Shown piece after piece: positions 24,772 through 64,000 of a stretch of DNA of 64,000 nt. The translations under genes were made by a program, and so were the position numbers. The first letter of the stretch is position 1. Every line of letters starts with the position of its first letter. This DNA is from a phage, in NCBI GenBank assembly GCA_014435945.1, contig GCA_014435945.1_4088.1. One strand, given 5' to 3'. The notes below the pieces were generated by a model. That model was not told the DNA's origin. It was given only the letters and a program-made list of their open reading frames with translations, and did not search any database.

Positions 24772-24780
24772 TATGTTATG

Positions 24781-24815
24781 ATAGGGACTTGAGAAATCGA
24801 GTCCCTATTTTTTTT
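24781..24815 (+). terminator. intrinsic terminator
   Basis: ATAGGGACT-10 nt loop-AGTCCCTAT hairpin followed by T7; GGAG and ATG follow directly. Confidence 0.75.
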
Positions 24816-24826
24816 GGAGAAAATAA

Positions 24827-25183
24827 ATGAAATCTAAAATCTTTTTACCACAGTTAATGTGGCATCTGGCAGAGTTAGATGAAGATGATGAATATACTGA
24901 CTATGGTACATGGGATGACAGTACTGAATCATTCAATCCCGATGTTAAGTACAAAATCATTAGTAATGAAAGTAAAGGGCATAGACGATGGACAGAAGAA
25001 TTTGATCTAGTTTTTCTTGACATGAACACGAACAAATATTATCATTGTACGTATGAACGAGGTTTAACAGAAGATAGACCAGCAGAACCATTCAGAAATG
25101 AAACTGATGGTGTTAAGTGCTATGAAGTTTCTGTTACCAGAGAAGAAATTATCACTTATCGAACTTTGTGGAAATATTTGTAA
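24827..25183 (+). CDS. hypothetical protein
   Basis: ATG 7 nt after GGAG; 118 aa. Confidence 0.5.
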   Translation: MKSKIFLPQLMWHLAELDEDDEYTDYGTWDDSTESFNPDVKYKIISNESKGHRRWTEEFDLVFLDMNTNKYYHCTYERGLTEDRPAEPFRNETDGVKCYEVSVTREEIITYRTLWKYL

Positions 25184-25581
25184 TGCTAAAAGAATTAGAT
25201 TTTTCAAACTTAGAAATCATCAGTGCTGTTAAAAATATCTCTGACTTTGGAGATGAGAAGTCAGTACTGGTAACTGTTACATTCGTCAAAGAACAGGATA
25301 GCTATAGCCATTTAGATGGTATTGAAGAACTAATTCACAAGACTAATCTACAAAACGATGGTAAACTCATTAAGCTTCAGGCTTCCTATACGCAAAAATC
25401 GTCATTTTTTGTAGACCTAAATAATGTAGTCAAGGTGGTATACAATCACCCTGAACACAAATACAGGAACACGACAAGAAACGAGAATGATGCTATAGAC
25501 TCCAATATCAAAGAGGATGTCGAATTCATCAACACAATTTTTGACCGTTGTTCCAAGGATTTGAAAAAGGTATACATGTAA
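25183..25581 (+). CDS. hypothetical protein
   Basis: ATG overlapping upstream stop (TAATG); ORF track gave GTG at 25168. Confidence 0.45.
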   Translation: MLKELDFSNLEIISAVKNISDFGDEKSVLVTVTFVKEQDSYSHLDGIEELIHKTNLQNDGKLIKLQASYTQKSSFFVDLNNVVKVVYNHPEHKYRNTTRNENDAIDSNIKEDVEFINTIFDRCSKDLKKVYM

Positions 25582-25601
25582 CGGGACATAACACATCCTA
25601 G

Positions 25602-25610
25602 TGATATAAT
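25602..25610 (+). promoter_or_regulatory. extended -10 promoter element (TGATATAAT)
   Basis: TGnTATAAT; same 9-mer recurs at 36899, 40505, 52848 and 55908. Confidence 0.45.
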
Positions 25611-25887
25611 GTATATTGTAAAATGACAACGGACATTGAAAAATGGATAATGAGAACCTACTTCTCTTGAAAATGTAAAGGATAGATGAGCTTTACCGTT
25701 GTAGCGAACAGCAAAAGAAACCTGTTAGAGTACTGGCAATCAAACAAACACGAGATAAGACCACGAATCACGGCGACACGGCTGTATAAAGAACTCCAAT
25801 AAGCACACAGAGAGTTCCTAGATAGATGTATAAGGTTCGCACCTTACGAATTTGCTAAGGGAGTTCAAGGATTGTGGACGCGATTTT

Positions 25888-25916: not shown

Positions 25917-26040
25917 CAGGTACTACTTTGATCGAATAGAGTTTAGTACTGAGTGCTGTTGATGAAAAGACCAGCGACCGTTGCATATGACTGCGATAGA
26001 GAGAAACCGAGCAACCCGCTTTCGCTCTCTAAATTTTGGT

Positions 26041-26069
26041 ACAGGAAAGATCCGTCCAAAATTTGAGAA
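26041..26069 (+). repeat. direct repeat copy 2 (core CGTCCAAAATTTGAGAA)
   Basis: ACAGGAAAGATCCGTCCAAAATTTGAGAA; core identical to copy 1. Confidence 0.7.
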
Positions 26070-26108
26070 ATTCGCAATTCGATAATATCCGATGCCATCA
26101 TCGTCAAG

Positions 26109-40837: not shown

Positions 40838-41464
40838 ATGGAAAGACAAATAATTGCAATTAACGGTACTATCGGTAGTGGCAAAGATACTTTTGGTGAA
40901 ACTTTTATCAATAATGGTTACACAAGAATGTCATTTGCAACTAATCTTAAAGATTCAGTTGCTGCTATCTTTGGATGGGATCGTGAAATGCTTGAGGGTT
41001 CGACTAAGGAAAGTCGTAAACTCCGTGAAGAGCCAGACCAGTACTGGTGTGAGAAGTTGGGTCGTGATGATGTTTCCCCTCGTTGGGTATTACAGAATTA
41101 CGGTACTAATATTTTGCGTAAGTACTTTCATAATGATATTTGGGTCCATAGTTTAGAGAAGTCAATGCAATCTGTTGAAGGGAATATTATCATTACTGAC
41201 TGCCGATTTCCAAATGAACTAAAAATGATTCGTTCATTAAATGGTATTGTGATTGAAGTTCAGCGTACCCTCCCACACTGGTATGGTTTAGCAGCATCTT
41301 TTAATAAAGGTGATATTAGCATGAAACCAATTGAGTTAGAATCAGTTCATGAATCTGAATGGGCGTGGATTGGTATCAATAATCCTGATATCATTGTACA
41401 AAATAATAGCACAATTGAAGCGTTGCACCAACAAGCATTGAGCGTTATTTATGCCAATAAGTGA
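40838..41464 (+). CDS. deoxynucleoside monophosphate kinase (T4 gp1-like)
   Basis: P-loop INGTIGSGKDT; ITDCRFPNE..IVIEVQR region parallels T4 dNMP kinase IVPDTRQDHE..VIHVVR. Confidence 0.6.
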   Translation: MERQIIAINGTIGSGKDTFGETFINNGYTRMSFATNLKDSVAAIFGWDREMLEGSTKESRKLREEPDQYWCEKLGRDDVSPRWVLQNYGTNILRKYFHNDIWVHSLEKSMQSVEGNIIITDCRFPNELKMIRSLNGIVIEVQRTLPHWYGLAASFNKGDISMKPIELESVHESEWAWIGINNPDIIVQNNSTIEALHQQALSVIYANK

Positions 41465-41500
41465 AATTAAAACAATTAGGACTTGACATTCAAATCCTTC

Positions 41501-41508
41501 AATAAATA
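41501..41508 (+). promoter_or_regulatory. possible T4-type late promoter-like element
   Basis: AATAAATA (7/8 to TATAAATA) 51 nt upstream of the tail sheath gene. Confidence 0.25.
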
Positions 41509-41558
41509 AGACTATACGAATATAATTCGAATAACCAATTATTTTTGGAGGATTTAAT

Positions 41559-44222
41559 ATGGCAGGAGATCTACTCTCACCTGGCGTTTCCATTTCAGTA
41601 ACTGATGAAAGTATGAGTACTGCTGCTGCTCCTGGCACAGTACCACTATTTGTAATCGCTACTGCTGAAGACAAACTTGTTCCTGGTAGCAGTGCAATCG
41701 CTGCTGGAACCACTAAAGCAAACGCTGGTAAACTACAGCTACTAACATCACAGAAAAGCTCACTAGATACATTTGGCTCACCAATTTTCCAAATGAACAA
41801 TGGTTCAGTTGTTCAAGGTGACGAACTAAACGAATATGGTCTACATGCTGTATATTCTTATCTAGGCATCACCAACCGTGCATATGTTATTCGTGCTGAT
41901 ATCGATTTAGCTCAACTATCACCAAGTGCAACTGCACCAACTGGTCCAGTACCAAATGGTACTCTATGGTTTGATGCTGCTCAATCACAAATTGAAGCTT
42001 ATGTTGCTAAGAAAGACAGCCCAAGCAGTTTCTATGACTGGCAATTAAAGCCTGTTACAATCGTAAGTTCTGAAGAAGTTGACGATGTAAGCCTAGTTGG
42101 TCTAAACGTTGATGATCTCGTTCTACGTTACAAACCAAGTAATGGTCAAATGCTTATGTACAAACGTGCAGCATCTGGTCTAGTACAGGTTGAAACTTAC
42201 CTATCACCAATCAACAAAGTTCCAGTTGGTTCAACTGTTGAACAAGGTAACGTATGGATTCGTGATGGTTATACTCAAAATGGTTCAAACTATTTTGGTA
42301 CTCGTTTTGTTCTAAAACGTTATGCATCTCTAACTCAAGTTTGGAATATCGTTCCAGCATATACTGGTAATTCTTTCCAAGAAGTTGAAGCTAAGAGTGG
42401 TGTACTAAACAACAGTTATATTGCTTGCCGTTTTGATGATGATAGTAAGAGTTTCTCTTTCTATATTCAAAGTGCAAAACTATCAGCAATTAGTGCTCCA
42501 GCAGTACCACTAGGTGAAACTGTTATTGAGCAAGCTGGTGAAAATAGTTATTTGACTTTCGCTTACCTAAACAAATCTGTTAAAGTACTTGCAGTACCAC
42601 AAGGTGGCGTAATTAATACTCAAACTATCATCGATAATCTAAATGTTAGTGCTGATCTTATCAATGATGGATTCAAATTCAAACGTGAATCTAATGGCGG
42701 TTTGGTAGTTACAAACACCAAAGGTTATAGCTTTAAAGTTACCCAAAGCGGTGATGATATTTTTGCAGCGAATGAACTAGCTAAACTAACTGTAGATAGT
42801 AACAACTATTCTCTAGTTAACGTTAATAACTTACGTGTTAGCTCTTCTGTTCCACGTAGTATTGCTAAAGACGGTACTATTTGGTATGATTTCGGTAATT
42901 CCGATAACCTAACTGTTACCATGTACATTGCAGATGTTGCAAATGACGAATGGGATCTAGTACAAGAAGATAACAAATATGTTCAAGTTGATGAACCTGC
43001 GGCAGACCGTCTAATTTGGGTACGCCCTCTATCTCAAGGAATTGATGGTTATGATTTCTATCGTAACGTTGATGGTGAGTGGGTTAAACTAGACAATACT
43101 GACCAAAGTACTCTAAACGGTATGATTTTCGCTGACTTTAACTTCCCTGAACAAGTTGCTTCTGCTGCTCTTTATCAGAATGGTATGCTTGCAATTGACC
43201 TCGGTAATACCGAAGGTGTTGTTAAGAAAATGGTTAATGGTCAATGGCAAGTTGTTAGTGGTGTTAGTCTTGATGGTGCAGGTCTATTCGGTCGTGCAGC
43301 ACAACGCAAACTAATCGTTGAAGCACTAGCTGCTGTAATCATCGGTAATGATGATATCCGTTCTGAATTCATCAACTTTAACCTAATCTGTGTTCCTGGT
43401 TATGTAGAAACTCTAGATGAATGTATTACCCTAAACACTGATCGTAAAGAAACAGCGTTTATCGTAACTGATGTACCTGCTCGTTTGAACCCAACCGGAA
43501 ACGGTAGTGCAGTTCAAGAATGGGCTACCAACGCAAACAACGCACCAAGTAATGGTTCAGTAGGCCGTACTTCTGCATATGATTATGCTGCTCAGTACAT
43601 GGGCTGGTGTTTAAGTACTAACGTTGATGGTGAAGAAGTTGCAGTGCCAGGCAGTACTGTTGCAATGCGTACCTATGCGTACAGTGATAGTGTTAGTTAT
43701 GTGTGGTATCCACCTGCTGGTACTACTCGTGGTGTTGTAACCAACGCTGCAAGTACTGGTTTCATTAATAGTGAAGGTGAATATCAACCAGTAGTATACA
43801 ACCAAGGTCAACGTGACGTGATGTATACCAACAACATTAACCCAATTGCAATGCGTCCTAACCGTGGCTTGCTAGTATATGGTGATAAAACACTATCTGC
43901 TAACCAAACCTCTGCACTAAGCCGTGTTAACGTTGCTCGTTTGGTTGTTTACATTCGTCGTCAACTAGAAATCATCTCTGAACCATTCCTATTCCGTTTG
44001 AATACTCCAAGTACTCGTCAGGAATTCAGTGGTGTAGTGAATAGCTTCCTAGCTGAAATCGTTCAACAACAAGGTCTATATAACTTCGCAGTAGTTTGTG
44101 ACGAAAGTAACAACACTTCTGAACGTATTGACCGTAACGAACTTTGGATGGATATTGCAATCCAACCTACCAAGTCTATCAACTTCATTTACGTACCTAT
44201 TCGTATTGAAAAGACTCAATAA
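41559..44222 (+). CDS. tail sheath protein
   Basis: 887 aa; conserved sheath C-terminal domain (GLLVYGDKTLS ... RVNVARLVVYIRRQLE ... FAVVCDESNNT ... WMDIAIQP). Confidence 0.85.
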   Translation: MAGDLLSPGVSISVTDESMSTAAAPGTVPLFVIATAEDKLVPGSSAIAAGTTKANAGKLQLLTSQKSSLDTFGSPIFQMNNGSVVQGDELNEYGLHAVYSYLGITNRAYVIRADIDLAQLSPSATAPTGPVPNGTLWFDAAQSQIEAYVAKKDSPSSFYDWQLKPVTIVSSEEVDDVSLVGLNVDDLVLRYKPSNGQMLMYKRAASGLVQVETYLSPINKVPVGSTVEQGNVWIRDGYTQNGSNYFGTRFVLKRYASLTQVWNIVPAYTGNSFQEVEAKSGVLNNSYIACRFDDDSKSFSFYIQSAKLSAISAPAVPLGETVIEQAGENSYLTFAYLNKSVKVLAVPQGGVINTQTIIDNLNVSADLINDGFKFKRESNGGLVVTNTKGYSFKVTQSGDDIFAANELAKLTVDSNNYSLVNVNNLRVSSSVPRSIAKDGTIWYDFGNSDNLTVTMYIADVANDEWDLVQEDNKYVQVDEPAADRLIWVRPLSQGIDGYDFYRNVDGEWVKLDNTDQSTLNGMIFADFNFPEQVASAALYQNGMLAIDLGNTEGVVKKMVNGQWQVVSGVSLDGAGLFGRAAQRKLIVEALAAVIIGNDDIRSEFINFNLICVPGYVETLDECITLNTDRKETAFIVTDVPARLNPTGNGSAVQEWATNANNAPSNGSVGRTSAYDYAAQYMGWCLSTNVDGEEVAVPGSTVAMRTYAYSDSVSYVWYPPAGTTRGVVTNAASTGFINSEGEYQPVVYNQGQRDVMYTNNINPIAMRPNRGLLVYGDKTLSANQTSALSRVNVARLVVYIRRQLEIISEPFLFRLNTPSTRQEFSGVVNSFLAEIVQQQGLYNFAVVCDESNNTSERIDRNELWMDIAIQPTKSINFIYVPIRIEKTQ

Positions 44223-44452: not shown

Positions 44453-44609
44453 ATGGTCGGTTGGTGTAAACTATACAGATCATAAACAAGAAAAAAAGTA
44501 CTTGTATTGTGTGAATATAGATTGGTTTCCTGTTGATGAGATACTTCAATAAAAGTGTAAGTAATAGATAAATAATATAAAGATGTCATTCCATAACAGG
44601 AGAATATAA

Positions 44610-53027: not shown

Positions 53028-54356
53028 ATGTCTACTCAAAACAACGATATCCTGAACGTAAAACTGACTCCTAAGAAAGCTAAAGAAGCAATGGCACTGG
53101 CTGACATGATTCAAGATAGCCTGATGATTTGGGGTAGCCCTGGTATCGGTAAATCTGCCATCGCACGTCAATACGCTGATGAGAACTACCCACTGCGTAA
53201 AGATAACGTGGCAAAAATTGAGTTCATGAAACAACAAATCGAAGCTGATACTGAAAATGCTGATCAACTTCGCCGTGAACTGGCAGCGTTTGAAGCCAAA
53301 CTAATCGACCAAGACACTAACTTTATCGATTTCCGTTTGTCTCAGATTGAACCAAGTGACCTTCGCGGTATCCCAGTTCCAGAGAAAGTGTTCCTTGATA
53401 TGGATGGTAAGCAACTGATTGAATCTGAACTGGCTAGTGCACAAGATTACATCGCTGAAACAGCAGTTGTGTGGGCAGCACCTAAAGTACTGAAACTGTC
53501 TCCAGATTGGAAAGGTGTTATTCTGTTTGACGAAATCAACTCTGCAATGCCGATTGTACAGGCAGCGTCTTATCAGCTAATCCTCGACCGTTGTGTTGGT
53601 GAGATGAAGCTACCTAAGACTGCACTGATTCTCGCAGCAGGTAACCGTGAAACTGATGGCGGTGTAACGTTCTCTCTAGCTACACCACTGCGTGACCGTA
53701 TGACCCACATCGAAATGATTCCTTATCATCAAGATTGGATTAACGATTATGCGATTGGTAAGCGTTTGAACCCAGCAACTGTAGCGTTCATCAACAACAC
53801 TGGTGCTAAACACTTCAACACCCTTAGCCCACAAGATCCTTCTCACTGTGGTGGTACTTCTCCACGTTCATGGGAAGCAGTAGCACGCTACGAAGATCTG
53901 AAGAAAGTTAAGAACATTGATAAAGAAGTGTTCCGTGCGATGATTGCAGGTCGTGTTGGTGAAGGCGTAGCAACTGAATACATCGAGTATGTTGATAACG
54001 TAGCTAAACTACCAGATACCATGTCCATCCTACAGGGTGAGATTAAAGAGATTGATGCTTCGCTTGATATTTCCGCGAACTACTTCATCACTCTGAATCT
54101 GGTTTACAAAATTATCGACCTCTACAATGAGAAGCAAGAACAACGTCTACCAGTGGAAGATTGGGGTAAGCTGTGCAACAACTTCATCACCTTCCTAGAC
54201 CATAACTTCTCTGCAACTCAAGCAGAACTGGCAGTACTGGCGATTCGTACCATCACGCTTCATAAAGTAGCGATTACGATTAAAGATGTACCAGCGTTTA
54301 AAGACTTCGTTATGAAGTACTCTGACCTAGTACGTAAAGCACGCTCTCTTGGTTAA
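53028..54356 (+). CDS. MoxR-like AAA+ ATPase
   Basis: Walker A WGSPGIGKS, Walker B ILFDEIN; size and pattern of MoxR/CbbQ-type ATPases. Confidence 0.8.
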   Translation: MSTQNNDILNVKLTPKKAKEAMALADMIQDSLMIWGSPGIGKSAIARQYADENYPLRKDNVAKIEFMKQQIEADTENADQLRRELAAFEAKLIDQDTNFIDFRLSQIEPSDLRGIPVPEKVFLDMDGKQLIESELASAQDYIAETAVVWAAPKVLKLSPDWKGVILFDEINSAMPIVQAASYQLILDRCVGEMKLPKTALILAAGNRETDGGVTFSLATPLRDRMTHIEMIPYHQDWINDYAIGKRLNPATVAFINNTGAKHFNTLSPQDPSHCGGTSPRSWEAVARYEDLKKVKNIDKEVFRAMIAGRVGEGVATEYIEYVDNVAKLPDTMSILQGEIKEIDASLDISANYFITLNLVYKIIDLYNEKQEQRLPVEDWGKLCNNFITFLDHNFSATQAELAVLAIRTITLHKVAITIKDVPAFKDFVMKYSDLVRKARSLG

Positions 54357-54380
54357 TAATTAAAAAGAGTGTTGACAAGG

Positions 54381-54406
54381 AGGATACCACATGGTATCCT
54401 TCTTTT
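54381..54406 (+). terminator. intrinsic terminator
   Basis: AGGATACC-acat-GGTATCCT followed by TCTTTT. Confidence 0.6.
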
Positions 54407-54431
54407 ATCTTAACTAAACGAGGAAATACAA

Positions 54432-55841
54432 ATGTCAGATAAACGTTTCAGTGATGTTACTCCGGCTCTCCAGAAAGAATGTCAAGATCGTCTGATCTTA
54501 GCTCGAACATCTTTAATGCTAACATTCCCATTCTTTGGTGTACTGGCTTCTCGTCTGCGTCCAGTTGCAAACAACACATGGTGTCGTACTTTGGCTGTAG
54601 ATGGTAAGCATTTATTCTACAACGTAGAATTCATCATGGGTATTCAGGACCAATCCAAAAAGTCAGCATACGAAGAAGCAATTCGTGAGAAACATCCTGA
54701 AGTAACTGAAGAACAACTTAAAGAAATGACAGAAGGTTTGACTGATGAAAACCTGATTGCAGTTATTTGTCATGAAATTCTTCACTGTGCATATGACCAC
54801 TTCTTGCGTCGTGGTATGCGTGACCCGCAGCGTTATAACCGTGCTGCTGACTATGCAATTAACCAGATTCTTGTTCGTGATAAAATTGGTAAAATCCAAA
54901 GCCAATGGCTGTACGATAAAAAGTACGATGGTATGACTGCTGAAGAGATTTATAACATTCTCGAAGAAGAAGATAAACAGGATCAAGACGGGGAAGGTGA
55001 AGGAAATCCACAGGCTGGTAGTGGTGAGGGTGAAGGTAAATCACGCGGTACTTTTGGTGATATCAAAGATGGTAAAGGCAAAGGTACAACAATCGACCAG
55101 CATGACGTTCCACAAGAAGGTCAAGAAGGTGGTTCAAGTGATAAACAAAAACGTGATTATATGGATGATTTCAAAACAGCAATGATGAATGCTGCTCGTG
55201 CAGGTGGTACTCCTGCTGAAATCGCACGTATGATTAACAACTTCAAAGAACCTAAGATTGACTGGCGTTCCAAACTTCACCGCACACTGCGTAGCTGGTT
55301 GAAGTCTGATGCAACTTATCAAAATCCTAATCGTCGTTCATGGGGTGCTGGTTTTGGTAGTTCTGGTTCATTCTACGGGAATCCAATCTTCCCTGGTATG
55401 AAACCAGATGATGATATTGATATTGCAATTGCACTAGATGCATCCGGTTCTATCTCTGAAGATATGCTCCGTGATTTCATCAGTGAAGTACTGGGTATCA
55501 CTAAGCAGTTTAAACAATTTAAAATCCGTATCATGACGTTCGATACTGAAGTTTATACTGTTAAAGATTACAAAACTGGTGAAGAGAGTAAGATTCTCGA
55601 ATATCCAGTGAAAGGTGGTGGTGGTACTGACTTTGAAGCAGTATGGGTTCATATGAAGCATGACAACTATAAGCCTAAACAGCTTATTATGTTTACCGAT
55701 GGTGAGCCGTGGCAGTCATGGGGTGATCCTGATTACTGTAAGACACTGTTTGTTATCCACAGTAATCCTAACAAACAAGCACCATTTGGCGAAACTGTAC
55801 ACTACGAATATGAAGCTGACAAAAAGCGTCAACGTAGCTAA
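54432..55841 (+). CDS. von Willebrand factor A domain protein with N-terminal metallopeptidase-like domain
   Basis: HEILHCAYDH (HExxH) in N-terminal half; C-terminal MIDAS motif DIAIALDASGS; Gly/Glu-rich linker. Confidence 0.7.
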   Translation: MSDKRFSDVTPALQKECQDRLILARTSLMLTFPFFGVLASRLRPVANNTWCRTLAVDGKHLFYNVEFIMGIQDQSKKSAYEEAIREKHPEVTEEQLKEMTEGLTDENLIAVICHEILHCAYDHFLRRGMRDPQRYNRAADYAINQILVRDKIGKIQSQWLYDKKYDGMTAEEIYNILEEEDKQDQDGEGEGNPQAGSGEGEGKSRGTFGDIKDGKGKGTTIDQHDVPQEGQEGGSSDKQKRDYMDDFKTAMMNAARAGGTPAEIARMINNFKEPKIDWRSKLHRTLRSWLKSDATYQNPNRRSWGAGFGSSGSFYGNPIFPGMKPDDDIDIAIALDASGSISEDMLRDFISEVLGITKQFKQFKIRIMTFDTEVYTVKDYKTGEESKILEYPVKGGGGTDFEAVWVHMKHDNYKPKQLIMFTDGEPWQSWGDPDYCKTLFVIHSNPNKQAPFGETVHYEYEADKKRQRS

Positions 55842-56842: not shown

Positions 56843-57436
56843 ATGAATAAAATAGAATTAGATGAAGCAATCAATGGTTTATCTAATGTATGTTTCAGTG
56901 GCGGGGCAGCAGGTGCTGACCGCCTTTTTTCTATCTATGCAAAAGACAATGGATTTGAAGTAATAAATTTTTCATTCAAGGGTCACCAAAGCAGTGTAGA
57001 TGAAAATACTATATTAGAAATTCCATCCAATATCCTTTGTGATAGTTCAATATTAAAACAATTAAACATTGCATGTTACTCTTTACGCCGTAAAGTTCCT
57101 AAGCCTGGTTCGTATGTATATAACTTACTTGCAAGGAATAGTTACCAGATACTTAATACTAAAAGAGTATATTGTATTGCAAATATTACATCACCCACGC
57201 AAGTTTCAGGTGGAACTGCATGGGCAGTACAGATGTATATGGATTCAGTTGACAATCCAGAAATATATTGTTATGATATGAACACTCGCTCTGTATTTTA
57301 TTATGATACAGTACTGAAAGAGTTTACTGAAACATTCTCAATACCAGCACCACACGGTAACTGGACTGGGATTGGTTCACGTAATGCTACACAAAAACAC
57401 ATGGAACACTTTATTACATTTTTCAAGGACGTATAA
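56843..57436 (+). CDS. hypothetical protein (possible DprA/LOG-like Rossmann fold)
   Basis: N-terminal CFSGGAAGADRLFSIYA resembles GxAxGxD of DprA/LOG-like proteins; tentative. Confidence 0.3.
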   Translation: MNKIELDEAINGLSNVCFSGGAAGADRLFSIYAKDNGFEVINFSFKGHQSSVDENTILEIPSNILCDSSILKQLNIACYSLRRKVPKPGSYVYNLLARNSYQILNTKRVYCIANITSPTQVSGGTAWAVQMYMDSVDNPEIYCYDMNTRSVFYYDTVLKEFTETFSIPAPHGNWTGIGSRNATQKHMEHFITFFKDV

Positions 57437-58365
57437 TGAAACAACTACAAGAACTATATCAAAGAATTCTGGATCAAGGTGTCGAAAGCGTTGATCGTAC
57501 TGGTGTTGGCACTATCAAGCTAATCGGACAACAAATGCGTTTTGACCTAAAAGAAGGTTTCCCAGCAGTAACTACTAAACGTTTAGCTTGGAAAGCAATG
57601 ACTTCAGAATTGTTATGGTTTATTGAAGGTTCTCACGATGAGCGTCGTCTGTGTGAAATTTTACACGGGACACGTGATGTAGAAAAGAAAACAATTTGGA
57701 CAGACAACTACCTTAATCAAGGTGTAAGCCTTGGGTATTCTGATGGTGAGCTTGGCCCAGTTTATGGTAAACAATGGCGTGAATGGGAAGATTATAAATT
57801 CAGTTCCAGTACTGAAGAAATTCAAGAACTAAAAGATAAAGGGTATAAAGTTATTGATTATACTGGTTCACATGGTGTTATTATGCGTCGTGTAACTGAC
57901 CAGCTAAAACAAGTTATTGAAGGTATCAATACTGATCCATACGGTCGTCGTCACATTCTAAGTGCATGGAACGTTGGTGAGCTTGATGCTATGACTTTGC
58001 CACCCTGTCATAGCTTTGTGCAGTTTTGTGTTGTACAGGGTAAACTAAGTTGTATTCTTCATCAACGTAGTGCTGATCTATTCCTTGGTGTACCATTTAA
58101 TATTAGTAGTTACTCACTACTAACTCATATGATTGCACAAATTACAGGGTTAGATGTTGGTGAATTTATTTGGAATGGTGGTGACTGCCATATCTATCAA
58201 AACCATATTGAACAAGTAAAAGAGCAACTCCAACGTGAACCACGTACATTACCAGAATTATGGCTAGATCCTACTATTACTGATATTGAAGATTTCACTA
58301 TGGATTCTTTCAAATTAGTTAATTACGATCCAATGCCAACAATCAAAGCACCAATGGCTGTATAA
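57436..58365 (+). CDS. thyA: thymidylate synthase (ThyA type)
   Basis: DRTGVGT, GPVYGKQWR, SAWNVGELD, catalytic LPPCH, HQRSADLFLGVPFNI; ~30-aa insertion relative to E. coli ThyA. Confidence 0.9.
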   Translation: MKQLQELYQRILDQGVESVDRTGVGTIKLIGQQMRFDLKEGFPAVTTKRLAWKAMTSELLWFIEGSHDERRLCEILHGTRDVEKKTIWTDNYLNQGVSLGYSDGELGPVYGKQWREWEDYKFSSSTEEIQELKDKGYKVIDYTGSHGVIMRRVTDQLKQVIEGINTDPYGRRHILSAWNVGELDAMTLPPCHSFVQFCVVQGKLSCILHQRSADLFLGVPFNISSYSLLTHMIAQITGLDVGEFIWNGGDCHIYQNHIEQVKEQLQREPRTLPELWLDPTITDIEDFTMDSFKLVNYDPMPTIKAPMAV

Positions 58366-58372
58366 AAGAAAA

Positions 58373-58396
58373 GGGAGACTTATGTCTCCCTTTTTT
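58373..58396. terminator. bidirectional intrinsic terminator between convergent modules
   Basis: GGGAGAC-ttat-GTCTCCC flanked by A-run upstream and T6 downstream. Confidence 0.75.
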
Positions 58397-58397
58397 A

Positions 58398-60362
58398 TTA
58401 TCTTAATGTAACCAGTGTACGTCCGGCAAATCTCACATCAGGAGTTGCAGGGATACTGAACACTACGCTTGTTCCATTGAATGTAACACTATCAACTTCA
58501 ACACGAGTGTAAACACCAGTACTTACGAGTTCTTGAATTTCAGCAGTTACTATGTTACTAGCAGTTACTGTTAATGTGTAATATGAGCCGTTTAAAACCC
58601 ACGCTGACGCAGTAAACGGGTCAGTACGTACAGAACCAGAACCAATTGGAACCCATTGTCCTTGGACCTTCTGCATCGATGTACGTTCGGTATTTGAGTA
58701 TGCAATCATACCATCAACACCAACTGAGTTATCAATTGTAGCCAGTACTGGTAATTGAATACCATATCGGTTGAAACGAGTACGAATAACACCGTTATCA
58801 TATATACTTACATCAGCATAACTTCCCATAGTGAAACGTAAGTCTGCACCAAGTAGTTTTATATCACTTTGGTTTGTAGTACTTTCTAATGTGAATACAC
58901 CATTCTCTAGTAAGTTTATGTTTTTGAATTTGTTATTAGTTCCATTGAAATTAGTATTTGCATTATAAGTACTAACACCATTAACTGTAATAGTGTCACC
59001 AGTAGTGTCGCCTAGTGTTGTATTACCTTTAACAACTAAATTCCCGCTGGCAGTGATGTTACCTGCGTTTAAATCACCAGTTAGTGATGTTGATCCATCT
59101 ACAATAATATTTCCATGAAAATGTGATTCACCATTTTTAAATTCAACTTGAACTTTATTCATTGAACTTAAAGAAATAATATTACTACTTGCACTTATCC
59201 CTACGTTTGTGTTTGATGCATTATCAAAACGTATTACTGGCGTAGCTGCTGGTGTAGCGGTAGTTTGGAATAATGTTAATGTTCCATTATTAATTCTAAC
59301 ACGCTCAGTTCCGGCTGTTGTAAAACCAATTGCGTCATCGGATGGATGAAATATACCAGTATTAGCATCGGACCACTTAGTTGGGTCATTACCTGGGTTA
59401 TTCGTTGGGTCAAACGGATTATTATTAAATGTCAATGCTGGTGCTGCTGCACTGCCATACACCACCCCAAAACGCCCAGAGCCGTCTGTTCCATCATTAT
59501 ACATGGAATCGCCAGTTCTACGTAAACACTCAATCACAACGTTATCTATGGATGTTTGAACGGTCCCTGCGTTTGTTCTAAATTGGCGATGATTTGCAAT
59601 CATTACAGTATTGTCATATAATACTGAAGCAGCGGAAATGCTTGTTCTTGACTGACGAAGACGTATATTCTTATCTTCAGTTATAATAATCCAATCACCA
59701 TCTGAAAGTGCAGTTTGGTTCATTGGAACACCAGATGCAAATGGTTTGGTCAAGTCAGTATCTGTTGCTAAATTTTCAAGGCCATCATGTCCAGTACTGG
59801 GAATAGATGCAGTAATAATTCTAGCAAAAGCGTATGTTACTAGTTTAGCACCAGATATATTTGGATTAGAGTCAACATAATATAAAATTTCAATCCAATT
59901 ACCTTGTCCAGTTGGATTTGTAGGTGTAAATGTAACAGGACTTGTTTGTGGATTATTTGCTTCATAATGTGCTTGTGCGGCATCCATTATACCACGAACG
60001 ACATAATAATCACCATTAAGCGATGGTGATGGTGCTGGTAGTGGAGTTTGTGCTAAAGGTGGATCGATATCATCTGGGATGGGATTATATGTACCAACAA
60101 ATTGTAAACCACTAGTTACTGAATCTGGTAATTGGGAAGTAAGAAGTTTACCGTTTGCATCTAGGTTTGCAAAACGTCGATATGCCATTGAACCATCTTC
60201 AAAGTCTAGTACACCTTCAAATGCTTTCCATCCTTTATTGTATCTAATCATCCCTGATCTAACCACATCAGCGGTTTCTTTAGTCGGTGCTTTAGGTAAT
60301 TCTAGAAATGCCTGACTATCTATAATTACACCACCATCACCTCTAATTCGATTTATACTCAT
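58398..60362 (-). CDS. tail fiber / receptor-binding protein
   Basis: 654 aa, Gly/Thr/Asn/Ser-rich with short beta-repeat character; convergent with + strand genes. Confidence 0.55.
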   Translation of the reverse strand: MSINRIRGDGGVIIDSQAFLELPKAPTKETADVVRSGMIRYNKGWKAFEGVLDFEDGSMAYRRFANLDANGKLLTSQLPDSVTSGLQFVGTYNPIPDDIDPPLAQTPLPAPSPSLNGDYYVVRGIMDAAQAHYEANNPQTSPVTFTPTNPTGQGNWIEILYYVDSNPNISGAKLVTYAFARIITASIPSTGHDGLENLATDTDLTKPFASGVPMNQTALSDGDWIIITEDKNIRLRQSRTSISAASVLYDNTVMIANHRQFRTNAGTVQTSIDNVVIECLRRTGDSMYNDGTDGSGRFGVVYGSAAAPALTFNNNPFDPTNNPGNDPTKWSDANTGIFHPSDDAIGFTTAGTERVRINNGTLTLFQTTATPAATPVIRFDNASNTNVGISASSNIISLSSMNKVQVEFKNGESHFHGNIIVDGSTSLTGDLNAGNITASGNLVVKGNTTLGDTTGDTITVNGVSTYNANTNFNGTNNKFKNINLLENGVFTLESTTNQSDIKLLGADLRFTMGSYADVSIYDNGVIRTRFNRYGIQLPVLATIDNSVGVDGMIAYSNTERTSMQKVQGQWVPIGSGSVRTDPFTASAWVLNGSYYTLTVTASNIVTAEIQELVSTGVYTRVEVDSVTFNGTSVVFSIPATPDVRFAGRTLVTLR

Positions 60363-60408
60363 TTAAATATTTCCTCAGAATAGATTATATATTAAGTATT
60401 TATTTTAG

Positions 60409-60439
60409 ATAAAAGAAAAGGCCAACCATAGTTGACCTT
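60409..60439 (-). terminator. intrinsic terminator (minus strand)
   Basis: On the minus strand AAGGTCAAC-uaug-GUUGGCCUU followed by UUUUCUUUU. Confidence 0.6.
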
Positions 60440-60452
60440 TAAAAAATATAAA

Positions 60453-61232
60453 TTAACGAGTACGCTCAGGAATATCAATACCTTCATATACCCATACAGC
60501 CGCCTGTTGTGCTTTATAAATTGCATCTTCATCAGCATCAGGAACTGCATCAATGTCAGCACATTGCTTATCACACTCTGCGAATAGTGATTCAACCATA
60601 GCAAATGCTTCCGTGTATAGTTGTGTCATGTCAGCAGCAGATAGTTTAACAATTGCATCATCAAGGAAAATAGAAACACTATCAGCACCTGAAGTTACTT
60701 GAGTGTAATAGTTAAGAAGCATTTGACGACCAGCTAGATCAGTACTATAACGATGACCGTTAAACATATAACCAGCATTAATACGGTCACTACGAGATGA
60801 TACGGTGCGTGCTTTCAGATCAGATTTAACTGATGCAATATCCATATCAACATAATTATAAGTTTTCAGTACTGTTAACTCTTTATATTCACCTTCTGCT
60901 TCTTCTAAGAATGTAATGACTGGTTGATTACTATCTAGTAGTTTAATATATTCCAAATTCTCATTAATTGCGTTCACGTTACCAACATTCTTATATTCCA
61001 ACCACCAGAACCCCTCTTCTTTACGAACAGCGTTATTAGGTTCAATTTCAGAACCATCTTTACTTGAAATACCATAAAGTGCACGAATATCGCTGTACAA
61101 ATAACGATATGTTTGTTCATCATCTGGAGTTGCTCCAGGGCGTTCTTTTAAACCCTTAACACCAACTGGGTTGGAGATGATGTTACCCAATTCATAATTT
61201 TCTTTAGAACTACCTTTTACATATGTAAACAT
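60453..61232 (-). CDS. hypothetical protein between fiber genes (possible fiber-associated)
   Basis: 259 aa; minus-strand ATG preceded by GAGGT; acidic C-terminus. Confidence 0.5.
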   Translation of the reverse strand: MFTYVKGSSKENYELGNIISNPVGVKGLKERPGATPDDEQTYRYLYSDIRALYGISSKDGSEIEPNNAVRKEEGFWWLEYKNVGNVNAINENLEYIKLLDSNQPVITFLEEAEGEYKELTVLKTYNYVDMDIASVKSDLKARTVSSRSDRINAGYMFNGHRYSTDLAGRQMLLNYYTQVTSGADSVSIFLDDAIVKLSAADMTQLYTEAFAMVESLFAECDKQCADIDAVPDADEDAIYKAQQAAVWVYEGIDIPERTR

Positions 61233-61255
61233 ATAACTACCTCACTTGTTAAGAT

Positions 61256-61289
61256 GGTGTCACCATTATTGATGACACCGTTTTTTTTT
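61256..61289 (+). other. hairpin followed by T9 on the + strand (terminator-like, antisense to fiber module)
   Basis: GGTGTCA-10 nt loop-TGACACC followed by TTTTTTTTT; the T-run is on the + strand although flanking genes are on the minus strand. Confidence 0.45.
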
Positions 61290-61299
61290 ATTTTAATTA

Positions 61300-64000
61300 T
61301 TAAGCAGTACGTTGTGCAATGAACAAATCAGTAACTGAACTTACACCATCATAAATTACTTGGTAAATGGTCACGCTACCAGCAGTTTTGTTTAGTTCAC
61401 CATCAACAACAGCATAAGTACCATCAGTTGTAAAGTTTCTGTTACCAGTTGTATCTTGTTTAACATAGATGTATACTGATGCAGCTTTACCACCACCAAT
61501 TAGGCCAGTAATTGGAGCCAACGTGGTATCTTGGTCTAGAGTGATGAAGTATACGTTACTTGTACCATCTGGAGTCCATGTTCCGGTTGGAGCAATTACT
61601 GATGATGTAACTTGAGTTGGGATTACATCATACTTTTTGGTAGTTACTGTTGTAGTAGTTAAGTTAGCATTAGTAGTGGTTAGTTCACCAGTTACTGTTA
61701 CTGCCTTATCAAACACAGCATTTTCTTTAAATGATGAAGTTGCATTAACGGTTAGAACGTCAGCCGCTGCGTCACCTAATGTTACGTTACCATTCGCAGT
61801 TAGTGCTCCTGTTACTGCTAGTGTTCCACCTACTGTTGCGTTACCAGTAACGGATGCACTTGCAAGTGTAGCCAAACCTGATGTTGTAATTGTAGAAACG
61901 GTTGTTGCACCGAATCCAGCAGTACCAGTTGCAGAGATATTACCACCTACTGTTAGGTTACCAGCAGTGATACCAACAGTACCAGTGATGTTTGCACCAC
62001 TTGACATAGTTACTGCACCACCAAATGAACCAGTAGTAGTAACTTCTAAAGTATTACCTTTAAGCAATCCAGTTGCAGTGATAGAAGTACCAGCAGTAAT
62101 TGAAGTGTTAGCAGTAATTGAAGTGCCAGCCGCTACGTTGTTAGTTGCAGTCAAAGACTTAACAGCTACATCGGAATCTGCTTGGTTCAATTGTGCATTT
62201 AGTACACCAGTAACAGTAAAGTCACCGTTGTTTACAACGTTACCATTAACGATTAGGTTGTTGTTTTGTGAACCGACTTCACCAATTGTTGCAGAACTTG
62301 AAATAATTGCCGCACCAGCAGTAATATTACCAGCAGAAGATAAAGAATCGGATGCTATTACTGCAAACGGTTCTAGTGTTTGTCCACCAACATCGATATC
62401 TGCGTTAATACCACCTTCAACACGTAGTTTACCAGCAATATAAGTGTCTGGCATAATCTGTACAGTTTCAGGCTGCTCACCTAATGGTGTACCAACTGTT
62501 AGAGTTGCACCAGTTTTAACAGAACCTAGTGTTGTTTGACCAACTACACCTAGTGTACCACCAACGGTTGCGTTGTTAGTTACTGCTAGACCAGTTCCTG
62601 AACCATTCAAGGTTGCAGATGGAGCAGTTACTGCACCAGAAGTTAGTGTTCCACCAATTGTTGCTAAACCAGTTACACCTAATGTTCCACCAAGGGTAGC
62701 ATTACCTGTCGCATTTAATGTTTCAGATAGAGTTAGTGTTTTAGCAGAGATATCTGCACCAGTTAGATCTAAGCTACCAGGAGTTAGTGTTCCAACTACA
62801 GTTACATCGTTACCAAATGTCGCAGCACCAGTAACGCCAAGAGTAGTACTGAAAGAGCCACTTGTTGCAGATACACCAGAAGTTACGATAGAACCAAGTG
62901 ATGCTTGACCAGTTACTCCTAATGTACCACCAATAGTTGCATTATTAGTTACTGCTAGTGCAGTACCAGTACCGCTTAGGGTTGCCGATGGAGCAGTTAC
63001 TTCACCAGTTACACCTAATGTTCCACCTACTGTTGTGTTACCACCAAAGGAAGCTGCACCATCAGAGTGAATAGTTTCAGATACTGACAAACTCTTAGCT
63101 GTAATGTCAGCAGTTGTTAGGTCTAAACCACCTGCTGGTGTGAATACACCTTCAACAGTTACATCGTTGTCAAATGTAGCTGCACCAGTAACATCCAATG
63201 TAGAACTAAATGTACCAGTACTACCCGATACAGCACCGGAAACCAATGAACCAACAGTTGTTACACCAGTAATATTCACAAGACCAGTTACAGTCAATGG
63301 ACCTGAAGATAATGAGCCAGTTACACCTAATGTTCCACCAACGGTCGCATTGTTAGTAACACCCAAACTACCAGCATTCACTGTGCCAGATGCAGTAACA
63401 TCAGTAGTACTAACACCACCACTTAGTGTGCTTAGGCCAGTTGCAGTGATGGTTGAAGCAGTTGCAAGACTATTAGCAGAAATATCTGCACCAGTTAGGT
63501 CAATACCACCTTGTGGAACCAATTCACCTTCAACTGTTAGTTTCTGAACAGTACTATCACCAGATACATTTAAGGATGCAGCACTTAGTGCAGCTACTGT
63601 ACTTTGACCAGTTACATTTAAAGTGGTGTTTACTGTAGTGTTGTTTAAAGTTGTATCACCGGATACTAATATAGCGTTGGTATTGATACCACCAGCATCA
63701 ACTTGAATACCACCAGTGCTTACAGTTACTTTCTTGCCGATATTTACGATATCAGTTAGGGTAGTTGCACCAGTTACTGAAGCAGTACCTGCGACTGAAA
63801 GGTTTCCAGATACGGATGGGCTACCAGTTACAACACCAGTTGTTAGTACTAGGTTACCACCAACGGTAGTATTACCAGAACTAGCAAGGGTAATTGCTGA
63901 AACATTGGAAGAACTTAAATCAATTGAACCATTAACAACTAGGTCACCACCAATTGTAGCACCTTCAGTAGTACTTAGGGATTTAGAACTAATATCGGTA
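61300..64000 (-). CDS. tail fiber protein with repetitive GT-rich units, 5' end beyond window
   Basis: ORF-track start (TTG at 63522) is internal: the same minus-strand frame has no stop from 63523 to 64000; repeated GGTLGVTG-type units. Confidence 0.6.
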   Translation of the reverse strand, partial: TDISSKSLSTTEGATIGGDLVVNGSIDLSSSNVSAITLASSGNTTVGGNLVLTTGVVTGSPSVSGNLSVAGTASVTGATTLTDIVNIGKKVTVSTGGIQVDAGGINTNAILVSGDTTLNNTTVNTTLNVTGQSTVAALSAASLNVSGDSTVQKLTVEGELVPQGGIDLTGADISANSLATASTITATGLSTLSGGVSTTDVTASGTVNAGSLGVTNNATVGGTLGVTGSLSSGPLTVTGLVNITGVTTVGSLVSGAVSGSTGTFSSTLDVTGAATFDNDVTVEGVFTPAGGLDLTTADITAKSLSVSETIHSDGAASFGGNTTVGGTLGVTGEVTAPSATLSGTGTALAVTNNATIGGTLGVTGQASLGSIVTSGVSATSGSFSTTLGVTGAATFGNDVTVVGTLTPGSLDLTGADISAKTLTLSETLNATGNATLGGTLGVTGLATIGGTLTSGAVTAPSATLNGSGTGLAVTNNATVGGTLGVVGQTTLGSVKTGATLTVGTPLGEQPETVQIMPDTYIAGKLRVEGGINADIDVGGQTLEPFAVIASDSLSSAGNITAGAAIISSSATIGEVGSQNNNLIVNGNVVNNGDFTVTGVLNAQLNQADSDVAVKSLTATNNVAAGTSITANTSITAGTSITATGLLKGNTLEVTTTGSFGGAVTMSSGANITGTVGITAGNLTVGGNISATGTAGFGATTVSTITTSGLATLASASVTGNATVGGTLAVTGALTANGNVTLGDAAADVLTVNATSSFKENAVFDKAVTVTGELTTTNANLTTTTVTTKKYDVIPTQVTSSVIAPTGTWTPDGTSNVYFITLDQDTTLAPITGLIGGGKAASVYIYVKQDTTGNRNFTTDGTYAVVDGELNKTAGSVTIYQVIYDGVSSVTDLFIAQRTA

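Follow-up and report, generated by a model that had tools for sequence, protein, structure and literature searches.

Genes and features at the locus

The window analysed here is a 64,000-nucleotide stretch of phage DNA, and its last part carries three minus-strand genes that converge on thyA. Over 5.6 kb its identity was 99.8% to Escherichia phage Turkey3, a member of the genus Asteriusvirus (121Q/PBECO4 group), and 99.1% to phage BF17, and DNA identity of the region to 121Q and PBECO4 was about 81%. The features are listed below by position in the window; terminator scores (d) are of the d'Aubenton-Carafa type.

58367-58396, both strands: bidirectional intrinsic terminator between thyA (+) and the 654-aa gene (-), called on both strands
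58398-60362, minus strand: gene of a conserved 654-aa virion protein (open reading frame; phrog_14293, E = 0; orthologue CBB_224 in virions)
60397-60403, minus strand: late-promoter-like word ATAAATA (within CTAAAATAAATAC), 34 nt before the start codon (ATG) of the 654-aa gene
60408-60440, minus strand: intrinsic terminator in the sense direction behind the DUF4376 gene, a hairpin at 60417-60440 and then UUUUCUUUUAUC (minus-strand d = +14)
60453-61232, minus strand: 259-aa DUF4376 gene, candidate tail-fibre chaperone or 'cap' (PF14301, phrog_17968, position)
61256-61289, plus strand: stem-loop 61256-61279, G at 61280 and T9 at 61281-61289, strong and of the intrinsic-terminator type (fold, d score, phage UE-S1)
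61300-64000, minus strand: 3' 2.7 kb of a giant tail-fibre gene, C-terminal 899 codons plus stop (frame, Turkey3/BF17, phrog_4549, PDB 9cuy_g)
61303-61650, minus strand: C-terminal domain of the fibre, residues 1791-1906 (identity between clades)
62075-62130, minus strand: tandem array of 18 nt x 3.1 encoding TSITAx x 3, protein AGTSITANTSITAGTSITATG (TRF score 77)
62490-63420, minus strand: about 2.5 copies of a super-repeat of about 125 aa carrying the NATVGGTLGVTG motif (DNA pairs, protein repeats)

All three minus-strand open reading frames are annotated in more than 30 relatives, and the module itself is already known and sequenced; its odd detail is the hairpin with T9 that points against the fibre genes. 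A preliminary description of this DNA had proposed a convergent minus-strand fibre module, and its reading as a convergent late tail-fibre module is supported. The same gene set and order, with the same convergence on thyA, was found in 121Q (genes 569-571), phAPEC6 (gp256), CBB (CBB_224-226) and fENko-Kae01 (ENKO_252c-255c). CBB and fENko-Kae01 thus retain the order thyA, 654-aa gene, DUF4376 gene and long fibre gene, and CBB virions contain orthologues of all three proteins, whereas RaK2 has neither the long fibre nor the DUF4376 gene. The three genes of the description stand. The end that it gave the module does not, as further minus-strand genes of the module, for another giant fibre paralogue and for a tailspike of the colanidase type, lie beyond them. 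The clade of the window has two giant fibre paralogues (1,906 and 1,638 aa), whereas 121Q has one.

The genes of this block had also been taken as the only minus-strand genes, and no further credible minus-strand open reading frame of at least 120 aa was found in the 64-kb window. A candidate at 41342-41800 was rejected because it overlaps two plus-strand genes, and the Turkey3 annotation holds one additional minus-strand frame, a 52-aa hypothetical, near window positions 25943-26101. The expected bidirectional terminator at the convergence with thyA was terminator-like on both strands (d = +46.7 on plus, +32.7 on minus). Its hairpin folds at -19.4 kcal/mol (+) and -16.6 kcal/mol (-) with z of about -5.5, and a terminator is annotated at this site in phage G17.

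The giant tail-fibre gene

The stop codon of the fibre gene lies at 61300-61302, and the frame is open for 899 sense codons up to 63999. A TTG start at 63522 is an artefact of the open reading frame listing, since the frame stays open to the end of the window. In the near-identical phages Turkey3 and BF17 the full gene has 5,721 nt and 1,906 aa, which is 1,007 codons more than in the window and places the start about 3.0 kb past its end, as had been anticipated for the last gene. Across the 899 aa, two amino acids differ from Turkey3. The protein matched phrog_4549 ('tail fiber protein', E = 1.5e-205), and its phAPEC6 orthologue gp256 (180 kDa) was detected in virions by mass spectrometry.

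A second match was PDB 9cuy_g, the putative tail fibre of the flagellotropic myophage phiTE (PDB 9CUY/9MJN chain g, 'putative tail fiber protein', 793 aa), where the repeat body aligned with E = 1.1e-29 and the C-terminal domain with E of about 4e-13. From the description in the phiTE paper, chain g appears to be the LTF and not the STF. The fibre here is 2.4 times as long and has three sets of super-repeats. Its C-terminal domain is the most conserved part of the protein (94-98% identity between clades, against 48-65% elsewhere), is 55% identical to that of the second fibre paralogue and 42-53% identical to those of fENko-Kae01 and CBB, and falls within the stretch aligned to the phiTE C-terminus (chain residues 583-792). 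As the phiTE fibres were modelled in their N-terminal parts only, this domain is without an experimental structure; the likeness is one of sequence homology. The giant gene encodes a long fibre of the phiTE tail-fibre type, with diverged super-repeats and a highly conserved C-terminal domain.

The super-repeats are 52-60% identical in protein (residues 1201-1511) and 75-80% in DNA, with repeat pairs at 62512-62639/62881-63008 (80%) and 63091-63161/63469-63539 (75%); the longest exact DNA repeat has 25 nt (at 62669 and 63317). Tandem Repeats Finder (TRF) returned tiny arrays only, the largest being that at 62075-62130. The GGTLGVTG-type motif occurs six times at irregular spacings of 32-244 aa. 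The repeats seen in the preliminary description are therefore real, but they are not tandem GGTLGVTG units, the period being that of super-repeats of 120-170 aa. Its suggestion of length variation by recombination holds in that isolates differ in repeat copy number, again with these super-repeats, and not GGTLGVTG, as the units.

The two accessory genes

The 259-aa protein, left anonymous in the preliminary description, was found to be of the DUF4376 fibre-chaperone type. It matched PF14301 at residues 136-237 (E = 6.7e-9; 36.6 bits, above the gathering cut-off of 25 bits) as well as phrog_17968. The DUF4376 region is the only confident part of its structural model, and a fold search with the model gave nothing significant. 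DUF4376 is a domain of experimentally characterised fibre chaperones or 'caps' whose genes directly follow a fibre gene (PMC7289586, PMC10579305), among them gp27 of Alteromonas phage V22 and gp9 of phage A5; in Campylobacter F341_034 and CJIE1 the chaperone role is putative. With gp27 and gp9 the 259-aa protein has in common a C-terminal DUF4376, a length in the range of about 180-260 aa and the position of its gene directly after the fibre gene, a likeness of domain, size and gene position and not of directly compared sequences. Its partner fibre is 4-5 times larger than those of the known DUF4376 chaperones. The orthologues CBB_225 (mass spectrometry, 68.5% coverage) and ENKO_254c (LC-MS/MS) are virion-associated, and the abundance of DUF4376 orthologues in purified CBB virions is more in keeping with a stably bound cap, as Mu Tfa is, than with a transient cap. 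By analogy, the 259-aa protein is a candidate tail-fibre chaperone or 'cap'.

The 654-aa protein had been described as the second of two large repeat-rich fibre genes. That label fits the giant fibre gene; the 654-aa gene is not repeat-rich and its product is only weakly fibre-like. Orthologues are 45-54% identical across RaK2-like jumbo phages, including RaK2, which has no long fibre, and in 118 homologues the two termini (N and C) are conserved whereas the middle varies. In virions, CBB_224 was detected with 22 peptides (47.8% coverage). Pfam, NCBIfam and PDB gave no sequence match, and the fold search returned weak, generic fibre-type matches only. The product is a virion protein that all RaK2-like phages have conserved.

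The long-tail-fibre cluster of T4 comprises gp34 (proximal), gp35, gp36, gp37 (distal) and the chaperone gp38. The GenBank label 'long tail fiber proximal subunit' derives from this cluster, which has in common with the region here that, on the late strand, smaller accessory genes stand behind a large fibre gene. No sequence match to gp34-gp38 was found in Pfam, NCBIfam or PDB, and the fold match between T4 gp34 and the 654-aa model was non-significant (E of about 0.24 or weaker).

The stem of the sense terminator at 60408-60440 covaries among relatives, its tail CCTTTTCTTTT is retained, and in G17 a terminator is annotated at the site by ARNOLD. ATAAATA, a proposed late promoter of RaK2-like phages (PMC5259590), is kept in the spacer before the 654-aa gene in every Asteriusvirus examined except PBECO4. 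The genes of the tail sheath and the baseplate tube also have the word 33-50 nt upstream, and it is rarer than expected window-wide (10 found, 29.9 +/- 5.1 expected). The 654-aa gene would accordingly form a separate unit behind a sense terminator and a late-promoter-like motif. Upstream of both giant fibre genes, too, there is a sense terminator together with a shared promoter-like motif.

The hairpin and T9 in the fibre/DUF4376 spacer

The Asteriusvirus spacer between the fibre and DUF4376 genes has about 65 nt and contains a hairpin, whereas that of CBB and fENko-Kae01 has just 13-26 nt, from which co-expression of the two genes appears to be the ancestral state. The coordinates reported earlier for the hairpin and T9 (61256-61289) were exact, and the orientation for plus-strand termination, antisense to the fibres, agrees with the d scores (+36 to +37 on the plus strand, about -40 in sense) and with the GenBank record of UE-S1, which annotates the orthologous site as a plus-strand terminator. 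In the sense (minus) RNA the element reads as A9 and then a hairpin of 10 bp that lacks a U-tract. The hairpin folds at -16.4 kcal/mol (+) and -17.7 kcal/mol (-), with z = -4.85 and -5.53, and none of 200 shuffles was as good. A simple terminator scan skipped it because of a C.A mismatch in the plus-strand stem.

The element shares with Rho-independent terminators a stable G+C-containing stem-loop directly before a T run, and its score is close to the window's best, within the top 5 of the 21 plus-strand sites. Unlike usual intrinsic terminators it ends no plus-strand gene; both of its neighbours are minus-strand genes running in the same direction, and it points one way only, the 'wrong' one, the textbook bidirectional case being the terminator at 58367-58396. 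It is the sole strong antisense-only site among 26 terminator-like sites in the window, and its T9 is the longest plus-strand T run in the whole 64 kb.

All GGTGTCA-type variants share this orientation. The sense score was about -38 to -42 in all six variant sequences and the plus-strand score +14 to +36 in five of them, the exception being the 121Q type (d = -1.8), where the plus tail is just TTTATTATT. Plus-strand terminator polarity thus holds in most Asteriusvirus genomes. JNE01 and Turkey5 have a different hairpin in the same spacer, a sense-strand terminator with d = +10 to +16, and for the A4 spacer hairpin neither polarity is clear. What is conserved genus-wide is a strong hairpin at this place, not a plus-strand terminator.

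Interpretation of the spacer element

We consider the region to be the promoter-distal end of a late minus-strand tail-fibre module of an Asteriusvirus jumbo coliphage, with a polar terminator in the spacer between the fibre and its candidate chaperone, and give this joint reading a probability of roughly 55%. No published transcript data were found for any Asteriusvirus, and no plus-strand RNA is known to need stopping here. On the plus strand, no gene, Rfam family or tRNA was found upstream of the element, and sigma-70-like promoter matches in the block were not above chance (19, with 26.9 +/- 5.2 expected).

It is possible, though we hold this more tentatively, that the hairpin acts solely in the sense (fibre) mRNA, as a stem-loop between the two cistrons, and that T9 merely mirrors, on the other strand, an A-rich leader of the sense RNA. 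The stem-loop might then protect the fibre part at its 3' end or, once the A-rich tract is cleaved, the chaperone part at its 5' end, or serve as a weak attenuator that sets the ratio of fibre to chaperone. Every Asteriusvirus examined keeps a strong spacer hairpin despite at least two sequence replacements (types GGTGTCA, CCAGTACTGG and GGTACAGG), and in JNE01/Turkey5 it is a sense-oriented terminator; distant relatives, however, have the short spacer and no hairpin. The slightly better fold of the sense RNA speaks against a plus-strand role. In the window, 121Q and UE-S1 types its stem is a perfect 10-11-bp helix that makes use of U.G pairs, and in three variant types such a U.G pair corresponds to a C.A mismatch in the plus RNA, yet this strand bias comes from 3-4 variants only and is opposite in Turkey5. 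A small 3' helix can also sequester the GAGG Shine-Dalgarno sequence. As for the A run, the phage sense strand is A-rich (52 runs of A>=6 against 29 of T>=6 in the plus block), and an A9 in the JNE01 and Turkey5 sense spacer is not adjacent to the hairpin, so that A-runs may have a sense-strand reason or come from slippage. Against this, the longest homopolymer run in the window is unlikely to lie beside a strong hairpin by chance, the 12 runs of A>=7 on the sense strand of the plus block all lack a strong hairpin after them, and the T-rich plus tail is held directly against the stem in all GGTGTCA-type variants.

An improbable alternative is that the AT-rich tract over the fibre stop is the promoter of a separate chaperone transcript, with the hairpin as its 5'-terminal stem-loop. 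The tract offers TGCACA-17-TAAAAT in the window (a minus-strand promoter-like site at 61318-61290 scores 9/12) and TTGCAC-18-TATAAT in the 121Q clade, and the 121Q, vB_Ec-M-J, UE-S1 and ph0011 variants have a perfect TATAAT 4-8 nt before the hairpin. But TATAAT is expected by chance in a TAATAA-rich spacer, the -35 spacing varies (21 nt in UE-S1), and promoter-like matches in the region are fewer than expected by chance. The spacer has neither the ATAAATA word nor the fibre-type motif, and distant relatives have the chaperone gene directly next to that of the fibre. We regard it as very unlikely that the element has no selected function on either strand and is a relic palindrome of the AT-rich spacer, with an A/T run that lengthens and shortens by replication slippage. 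Run length is indeed polymorphic among close isolates (A9, A8, A7, interrupted), and the JNE01 and Turkey5 hairpins are exact mutual inversions, which indicates that such palindromes are mutationally labile. The stem, however, is kept across clades about 80% identical in the flanking genes, and where its upper part changes the pairing is preserved. The z-scores of the fold lie near -5, and each Asteriusvirus spacer examined has a hairpin.

In the polar-terminator reading, RNA polymerase should read through from the fibre into the chaperone gene, as the sense direction has no U-tract, and the hairpin may also stabilise the fibre-chaperone mRNA. The fibre block ends at the bidirectional terminator that it shares with the convergent thyA operon. 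On the model of Alteromonas phages V22 and A5, the 259-aa protein would help to fold the fibre tip and may remain bound to it. In the plus direction, where the element is as strong as the window's best terminators, it would act as an insulator: antisense transcripts, whether leaking through from the convergent plus-strand operon or starting inside the two distal genes, would stop there and be halted before entering more than 10 kb of giant fibre genes.

Identity and gene content of the module

When the 5,603-nt region was compared by nucleotide search, 36 records matched, among them Escherichia phages Turkey3 (99.8 % identity) and BF17 (99.1 %). Eight more coliphages shared 96-98 % identity with the region, and the 121Q/PBECO4 group about 81 % at the DNA level. 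All of these matched phages are Asteriusvirus jumbo myophages. With near-identical DNA and a shared gene order beside thyA, the region belongs to the Asteriusvirus tail-fibre module, and this near-identity to annotated genomes allows the whole finding to be read against relatives. The genes concerned are the following.

57436-58365, plus strand: thyA, thymidylate synthase, converging on the fibre module
58398-60362, minus strand: ORF, 654-aa gene
60453-61232, minus strand: ORF, 259-aa DUF4376 gene
61300-61302 (stop codon), open to the window edge, minus strand: ORF, 3' part of the giant fibre gene (899 sense codons)

The three minus-strand ORFs agree with the preliminary description. It had also considered them the only genes on that strand, and indeed no other credible minus-strand gene of at least 120 aa was found in the window; the annotators of Turkey3 called one 52-aa ORF near 25943-26101. 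Dozens of deposited genomes already contain the module in annotated form, and virion proteomes have shown its proteins.

Purified virions from two relatives contained thymidylate synthase, as phAPEC6 gp259c (3 peptides) and fENko-Kae01 ENKO_251 (LC-MS/MS), which parallels old reports of this enzyme in the T4 baseplate. At 53028-55841 on the plus strand, a MoxR-type ATPase (442 aa) is followed by a 469-aa protein (N4 gp24/gp25-like according to the records of RaK2 and phAPEC6). The 469-aa protein carries clashing labels among relatives ('HNH endonuclease', 'Zn-dependent hydrolase' and 'putative membrane protein').

The giant fibre gene

The giant fibre gene of Turkey3 and BF17 has a length of 5,721 nt (1,906 aa), and the 899 fibre residues of the window differ from the Turkey3 C-terminus at 2 positions. 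The start codon therefore lies outside the window as had been proposed, some 3.0 kb beyond its end, and not at an overlooked ATG inside it. A 740-aa ORF with a TTG start was an artefact of ORF listing; the frame is open for 899 codons up to the window edge, and the cut-off ORF should be annotated as the 3' half of the 1,906-aa fibre gene.

The fibre matches phrog_4549 ('tail fiber protein') with an E-value of 1.5e-205 in 8 matched stretches. In the PDB sequence search its sole relative of solved structure came from the flagellotropic myophage phiTE, a 793-aa chain named 'putative tail fiber protein' (PDB 9CUY chain g, 9cuy_g). The E-value was 1.1e-29 with the full protein and 5.1e-15 with the part in the window. 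This match takes in the C-terminal domain as well as the repeat body. Homology to both a profile and a structurally located fibre places the protein in the tail-fibre family. Orthologues were found in virions by mass spectrometry (phAPEC6 gp256 (180 kDa), CBB_226 and the fENko-Kae01 fibre). The best-conserved part is the C-terminal 116 residues, with 94-98 % identity between clades whose fibres are 48-65 % identical elsewhere.

Two labels in use among relatives found no support in these searches. For the GenBank label 'long tail fiber proximal subunit' (T4 gp34-type), no Pfam or NCBIfam match was observed and the PDB sequence search gave the phiTE fibre only. For the 'YadA domain' label of PBECO4, the full-length fibre hit no Pfam family at E ≤ 0.01, and the YadA head, stalk and anchor domains were not found. 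The NCBIfam and PDB sequence searches returned nothing backing either label.

The clade of the window (Turkey3 and BF17) carries two tandem giant fibre paralogues of 1,906 and 1,638 aa with about 50 % identity (14903-25689 of record L001, past the window end), versus one giant fibre in 121Q and JP4. In vB_Ec-M-J (record L018, 6248-11168) the second paralogue is annotated as EcMJ_305 (1,049 aa) and EcMJ_304 (582 aa), which jointly match the single 1,638-aa ORF of Turkey3. A frameshift or nonsense mutation might have produced the two-ORF form, as might an error in sequencing or a true gene split.

Super-repeats and length variation

The fibre body had been described as imperfect tandem units of the GGTLGVTG type that could promote recombinational length variation. 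The motif does recur, with 6 copies in the window part of the fibre, but its spacing is irregular, and TRF reported trivial arrays only. The periodicity belongs instead to three sets of long tandem super-repeats, which were mapped by segment-wise BLAST and autocorrelation.

Super-repeat sets of the giant fibre (residues; units; identity among units)
Set 1: residues 121-454; 2 x 170 aa; 68-74 %
Set 2: residues 600-1090; 3 x about 150 aa; 49-62 %
Set 3: residues 1200-1510 (window ~62490-63420); ~2.5 x ~125 aa; protein 52-60 %, DNA 75-80 %

Length variation through repeats was borne out. Super-repeat copy number differs by isolate (there are three 170-aa units in JP4, and close 125-aa units likewise vary in number), and the orthologues range from 1,827 to 2,129 aa. 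What has to be revised is the size of the units, which at the 120-170-aa scale are far larger than claimed. The longest exact DNA repeat in the window part of the fibre is only 25 nt.

The near-identity of TH47 and vB_Ec-M-J to the window ends at query positions ~4120-4139 (window ~62520-62536), inside the 125-aa super-repeat region, and upstream of it their fibres are about 65 % identical to that of the window. This position marks a mosaic breakpoint that falls at a repeat.

The DUF4376 and 654-aa proteins

The 259-aa protein contains a DUF4376 domain (PF14301; residues 136-237, profile positions 3-104 of 106) with 36.6 bits against a Pfam gathering score of 25 and an E-value of 6.7e-9, and its homologues carry PF14301 as well. 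The gene lies immediately downstream of the fibre gene, with a spacer of 67 nt here and of 13-26 nt in the more distant RaK2-like phages CBB and fENko-Kae01. Proteins with a C-terminal DUF4376 encoded right after fibre genes have been studied directly (PMC7289586, PMC10579305): gp27 of Alteromonas phage V22 is an intermolecular fibre chaperone, gp9 of Alteromonas phage A5 is a chaperone that remains bound as a 'transient cap', and those of Campylobacter phages are presumed RBP chaperones. A role in fibre maturation or tip binding has been shown for V22 gp27 and A5 gp9; the 259-aa protein is likened to them by domain and position. Its AlphaFold model is confident for residues 130-250 only, the DUF4376 part, and Foldseek found no significant neighbour in the PDB (E ≥ 0.17), so it is from domain and gene position that we infer a candidate tail-fibre chaperone or cap. 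The virion association of its orthologues CBB_225 (68.5 % coverage) and ENKO_254c is consistent with a bound cap.

The 654-aa gene had been presented as a second repeat-rich fibre, and this label was rejected. Its product falls in phrog_14293, a family of unknown function, in the profile search. The AlphaFold model (pLDDT 70.8) gave weak, generic fibre-like Foldseek matches in BFVD and nothing below E = 0.08 in the PDB; hence no specific role was given to it. Orthologues are 45-54 % identical over all RaK2-like genera, RaK2 included, and the full-length homologues are conserved at both ends and variable in the middle. RaK2, which has neither the long fibre nor the DUF4376 gene, retains a homologue of the 654-aa protein, and this weakens the idea that the protein forms the long fibre's distal half. 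Its orthologue CBB_224 is abundant in virions, and we treat it as a conserved virion protein.

The spacer hairpin and its distribution

Between the fibre and DUF4376 genes, a hairpin followed by T9 had been reported as oriented for plus-strand termination, antisense to the fibres. The coordinates are exact (stem-loop 61256-61279, G 61280, T9 61281-61289) and the polarity was confirmed by a d'Aubenton-Carafa-type score d of +36 to +37 on the plus strand versus about -40 on the sense strand. As a plus-strand intrinsic terminator the site has a stem-loop of -13 kcal/mol followed by T9 (tail score 5.9); on the sense strand no U-tract follows (tail AUCUUAACAAG, tail score 1.1, d = -40). It ranks among the five best of 21 plus-strand terminator-like sites in the window and is the sole strong antisense-only one. 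T9 is the longest plus-strand T run in the 64 kb, and none of the 12 sense-strand runs of at least seven A elsewhere precedes a strong hairpin. No plus-strand gene or known RNA that could end at the hairpin was found in 58397-61255, so any plus-strand RNA there would be antisense. Rfam and tRNA scans of 57500-64000 returned nothing at the hairpin and sub-threshold matches only at the bidirectional terminator downstream of thyA.

A plus-strand terminator call is already present in one GenBank record, that of UE-S1, where the orthologous site is so annotated; the ARNOLD-based annotation of G17 lacks it. All spacers with this GGTGTCA-type hairpin (the window clade, the 121Q clade, UE-S1 and ph0011) have the plus polarity in common, and the tail weakens from T9 to TTTATTATT. 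JNE01 and Turkey5 have an unrelated spacer hairpin that is a proper sense terminator, the only ones with a sense U-tract. A4 has a third hairpin type whose polarity is not clear, and the spacers of CBB and fENko-Kae01 have no hairpin. An IMG/VR scan with the pattern GGTGTCA-N(4-14)-TGACACCATC gave 120 contigs, mostly unrelated, with no new spacer variant and 121Q alone matched.

The 29-nt spacer hairpin of Turkey5 (record L007, 1173-1256) is the exact reverse complement of that of JNE01 (record L006, 1173-1254) within otherwise collinear flanks (CCAGTACTGGTCACAATGATCAGTACTGG versus CCAGTACTGATCATTGTGACCAGTACTGG). As read from the two records, this is a palindrome/loop inversion between two isolates. 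A second, much weaker antisense-leaning hairpin, GGGAGCTAATGCTCCC at 6325-6340, encloses the stop codon of a plus-strand ORF (5776-6333); its T-tail is better on the minus strand (d = +8.7) than on the strand of the ORF.

Terminators, promoter-like motifs and probable transcription units

The bidirectional terminator proposed between thyA and the 654-aa gene (58367-58396) was recovered: a hairpin between an A-tract and a T-tract separates the convergent genes and is terminator-like on both strands (d = +46.7 on plus, +32.7 on minus). Between the 259-aa and 654-aa genes lies a sense-strand terminator, whose stem covaries in relatives with the U-tract kept, and after it CTAAAATAAATAC.

For RaK2-like phages, ATAAATA has been put forward as the late promoter (PMC5259590). 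It is much rarer than expected in the window (10 copies versus 29.9 ± 5.1), the word search giving, for example, 13599-13605 (+), 41502-41508 (+), 44568-44574 (+) and 60397-60403 (-). Four of the 10 copies precede structural genes by 33-50 nt (those for an 898-aa protein, the tail sheath, the baseplate-tube and the 654-aa protein). This pattern fits a genuine late-promoter core under counter-selection at other sites. The T4-type late promoter TATAAATA was ruled out here because the window has 0 copies (8.4 ± 2.9 expected). In Turkey3 each of the two giant fibre genes stands behind a sense terminator and the common motif AACTAAATATA[A/T]GTATATTAACAA; the fibre-upstream motif CTAAATATAWGTATATTAACAA is absent from the window. 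Taken together, the terminators and upstream motifs in the spacers point to two likely transcription units, fibre plus DUF4376 and the 654-aa gene, both probably late.

Possible roles of the spacer hairpin

The most economical reading of the T9 hairpin, to which we give roughly even odds, is a polar terminator. Because it has no sense-strand U-tract, read-through from fibre to chaperone, which the biology calls for, would be permitted, and plus-strand polymerases would be stopped at T9 before entering the giant fibre genes. Such polymerases might come from antisense starts or leak out of the convergent thyA operon, running past both 58367-58396 and the weak plus-strand face of 60417-40. A sigma-70-like antisense promoter (TTGCAA-17-TATAAT, 59594-59622, plus strand) was rejected as the source, promoter-like matches being overall below chance. 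The site is identical in 121Q, yet the coding sequence is about 90 % conserved there anyway, so its conservation is uninformative.

The main rival is that the hairpin acts in the sense RNA alone, as a stabiliser, processing site or attenuator. The fold is far beyond shuffles in both RNAs (z = -4.85 as plus, -5.53 as minus) and is slightly better as sense RNA owing to U.G pairs in three variants; the T run and the shared plus polarity speak for termination. A promoter with a 5' hairpin at the spacer is a minor alternative, and so is a hairpin without function, to which the z values lend little.

Beyond the polar terminator itself, we consider it rather unlikely, though worth stating, that the inverted terminator is a selected, genus-typical insulator, by which fibre and chaperone would be co-transcribed and 'anti-late' transcription from the convergent operon kept out of the giant fibre genes. 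Separately, and just as speculatively, the giant fibre may be the flagellum-binding fibre of Asteriusvirus, possibly the ~120-nm 'hairs' of CBB and phAPEC6. This idea comes from the virion-bound DUF4376 cap and from the hyper-conserved C-terminal domain, which flagellotropic phiTE and flagellum-dependent fENko-Kae01 also have in their fibres.

Significance for Asteriusvirus

The present analysis adds corrected functional labels, the super-repeat architecture with its copy-number variation, the pairing of a conserved fibre tip with a DUF4376 cap candidate, and a genus-wide view of the spacer hairpin. Its practical value is corrected annotation, in which the 'hypothetical' 259-aa gene becomes a DUF4376 chaperone/cap candidate; no point here would overturn established knowledge. 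If the one-way insulator were true, it would be a tidy example of how convergent transcription is kept out of very long late genes in a phage. For relatives, adsorption that depends on flagella has been reported, and the conserved fibre tip with its bound cap is a concrete and testable candidate for it.
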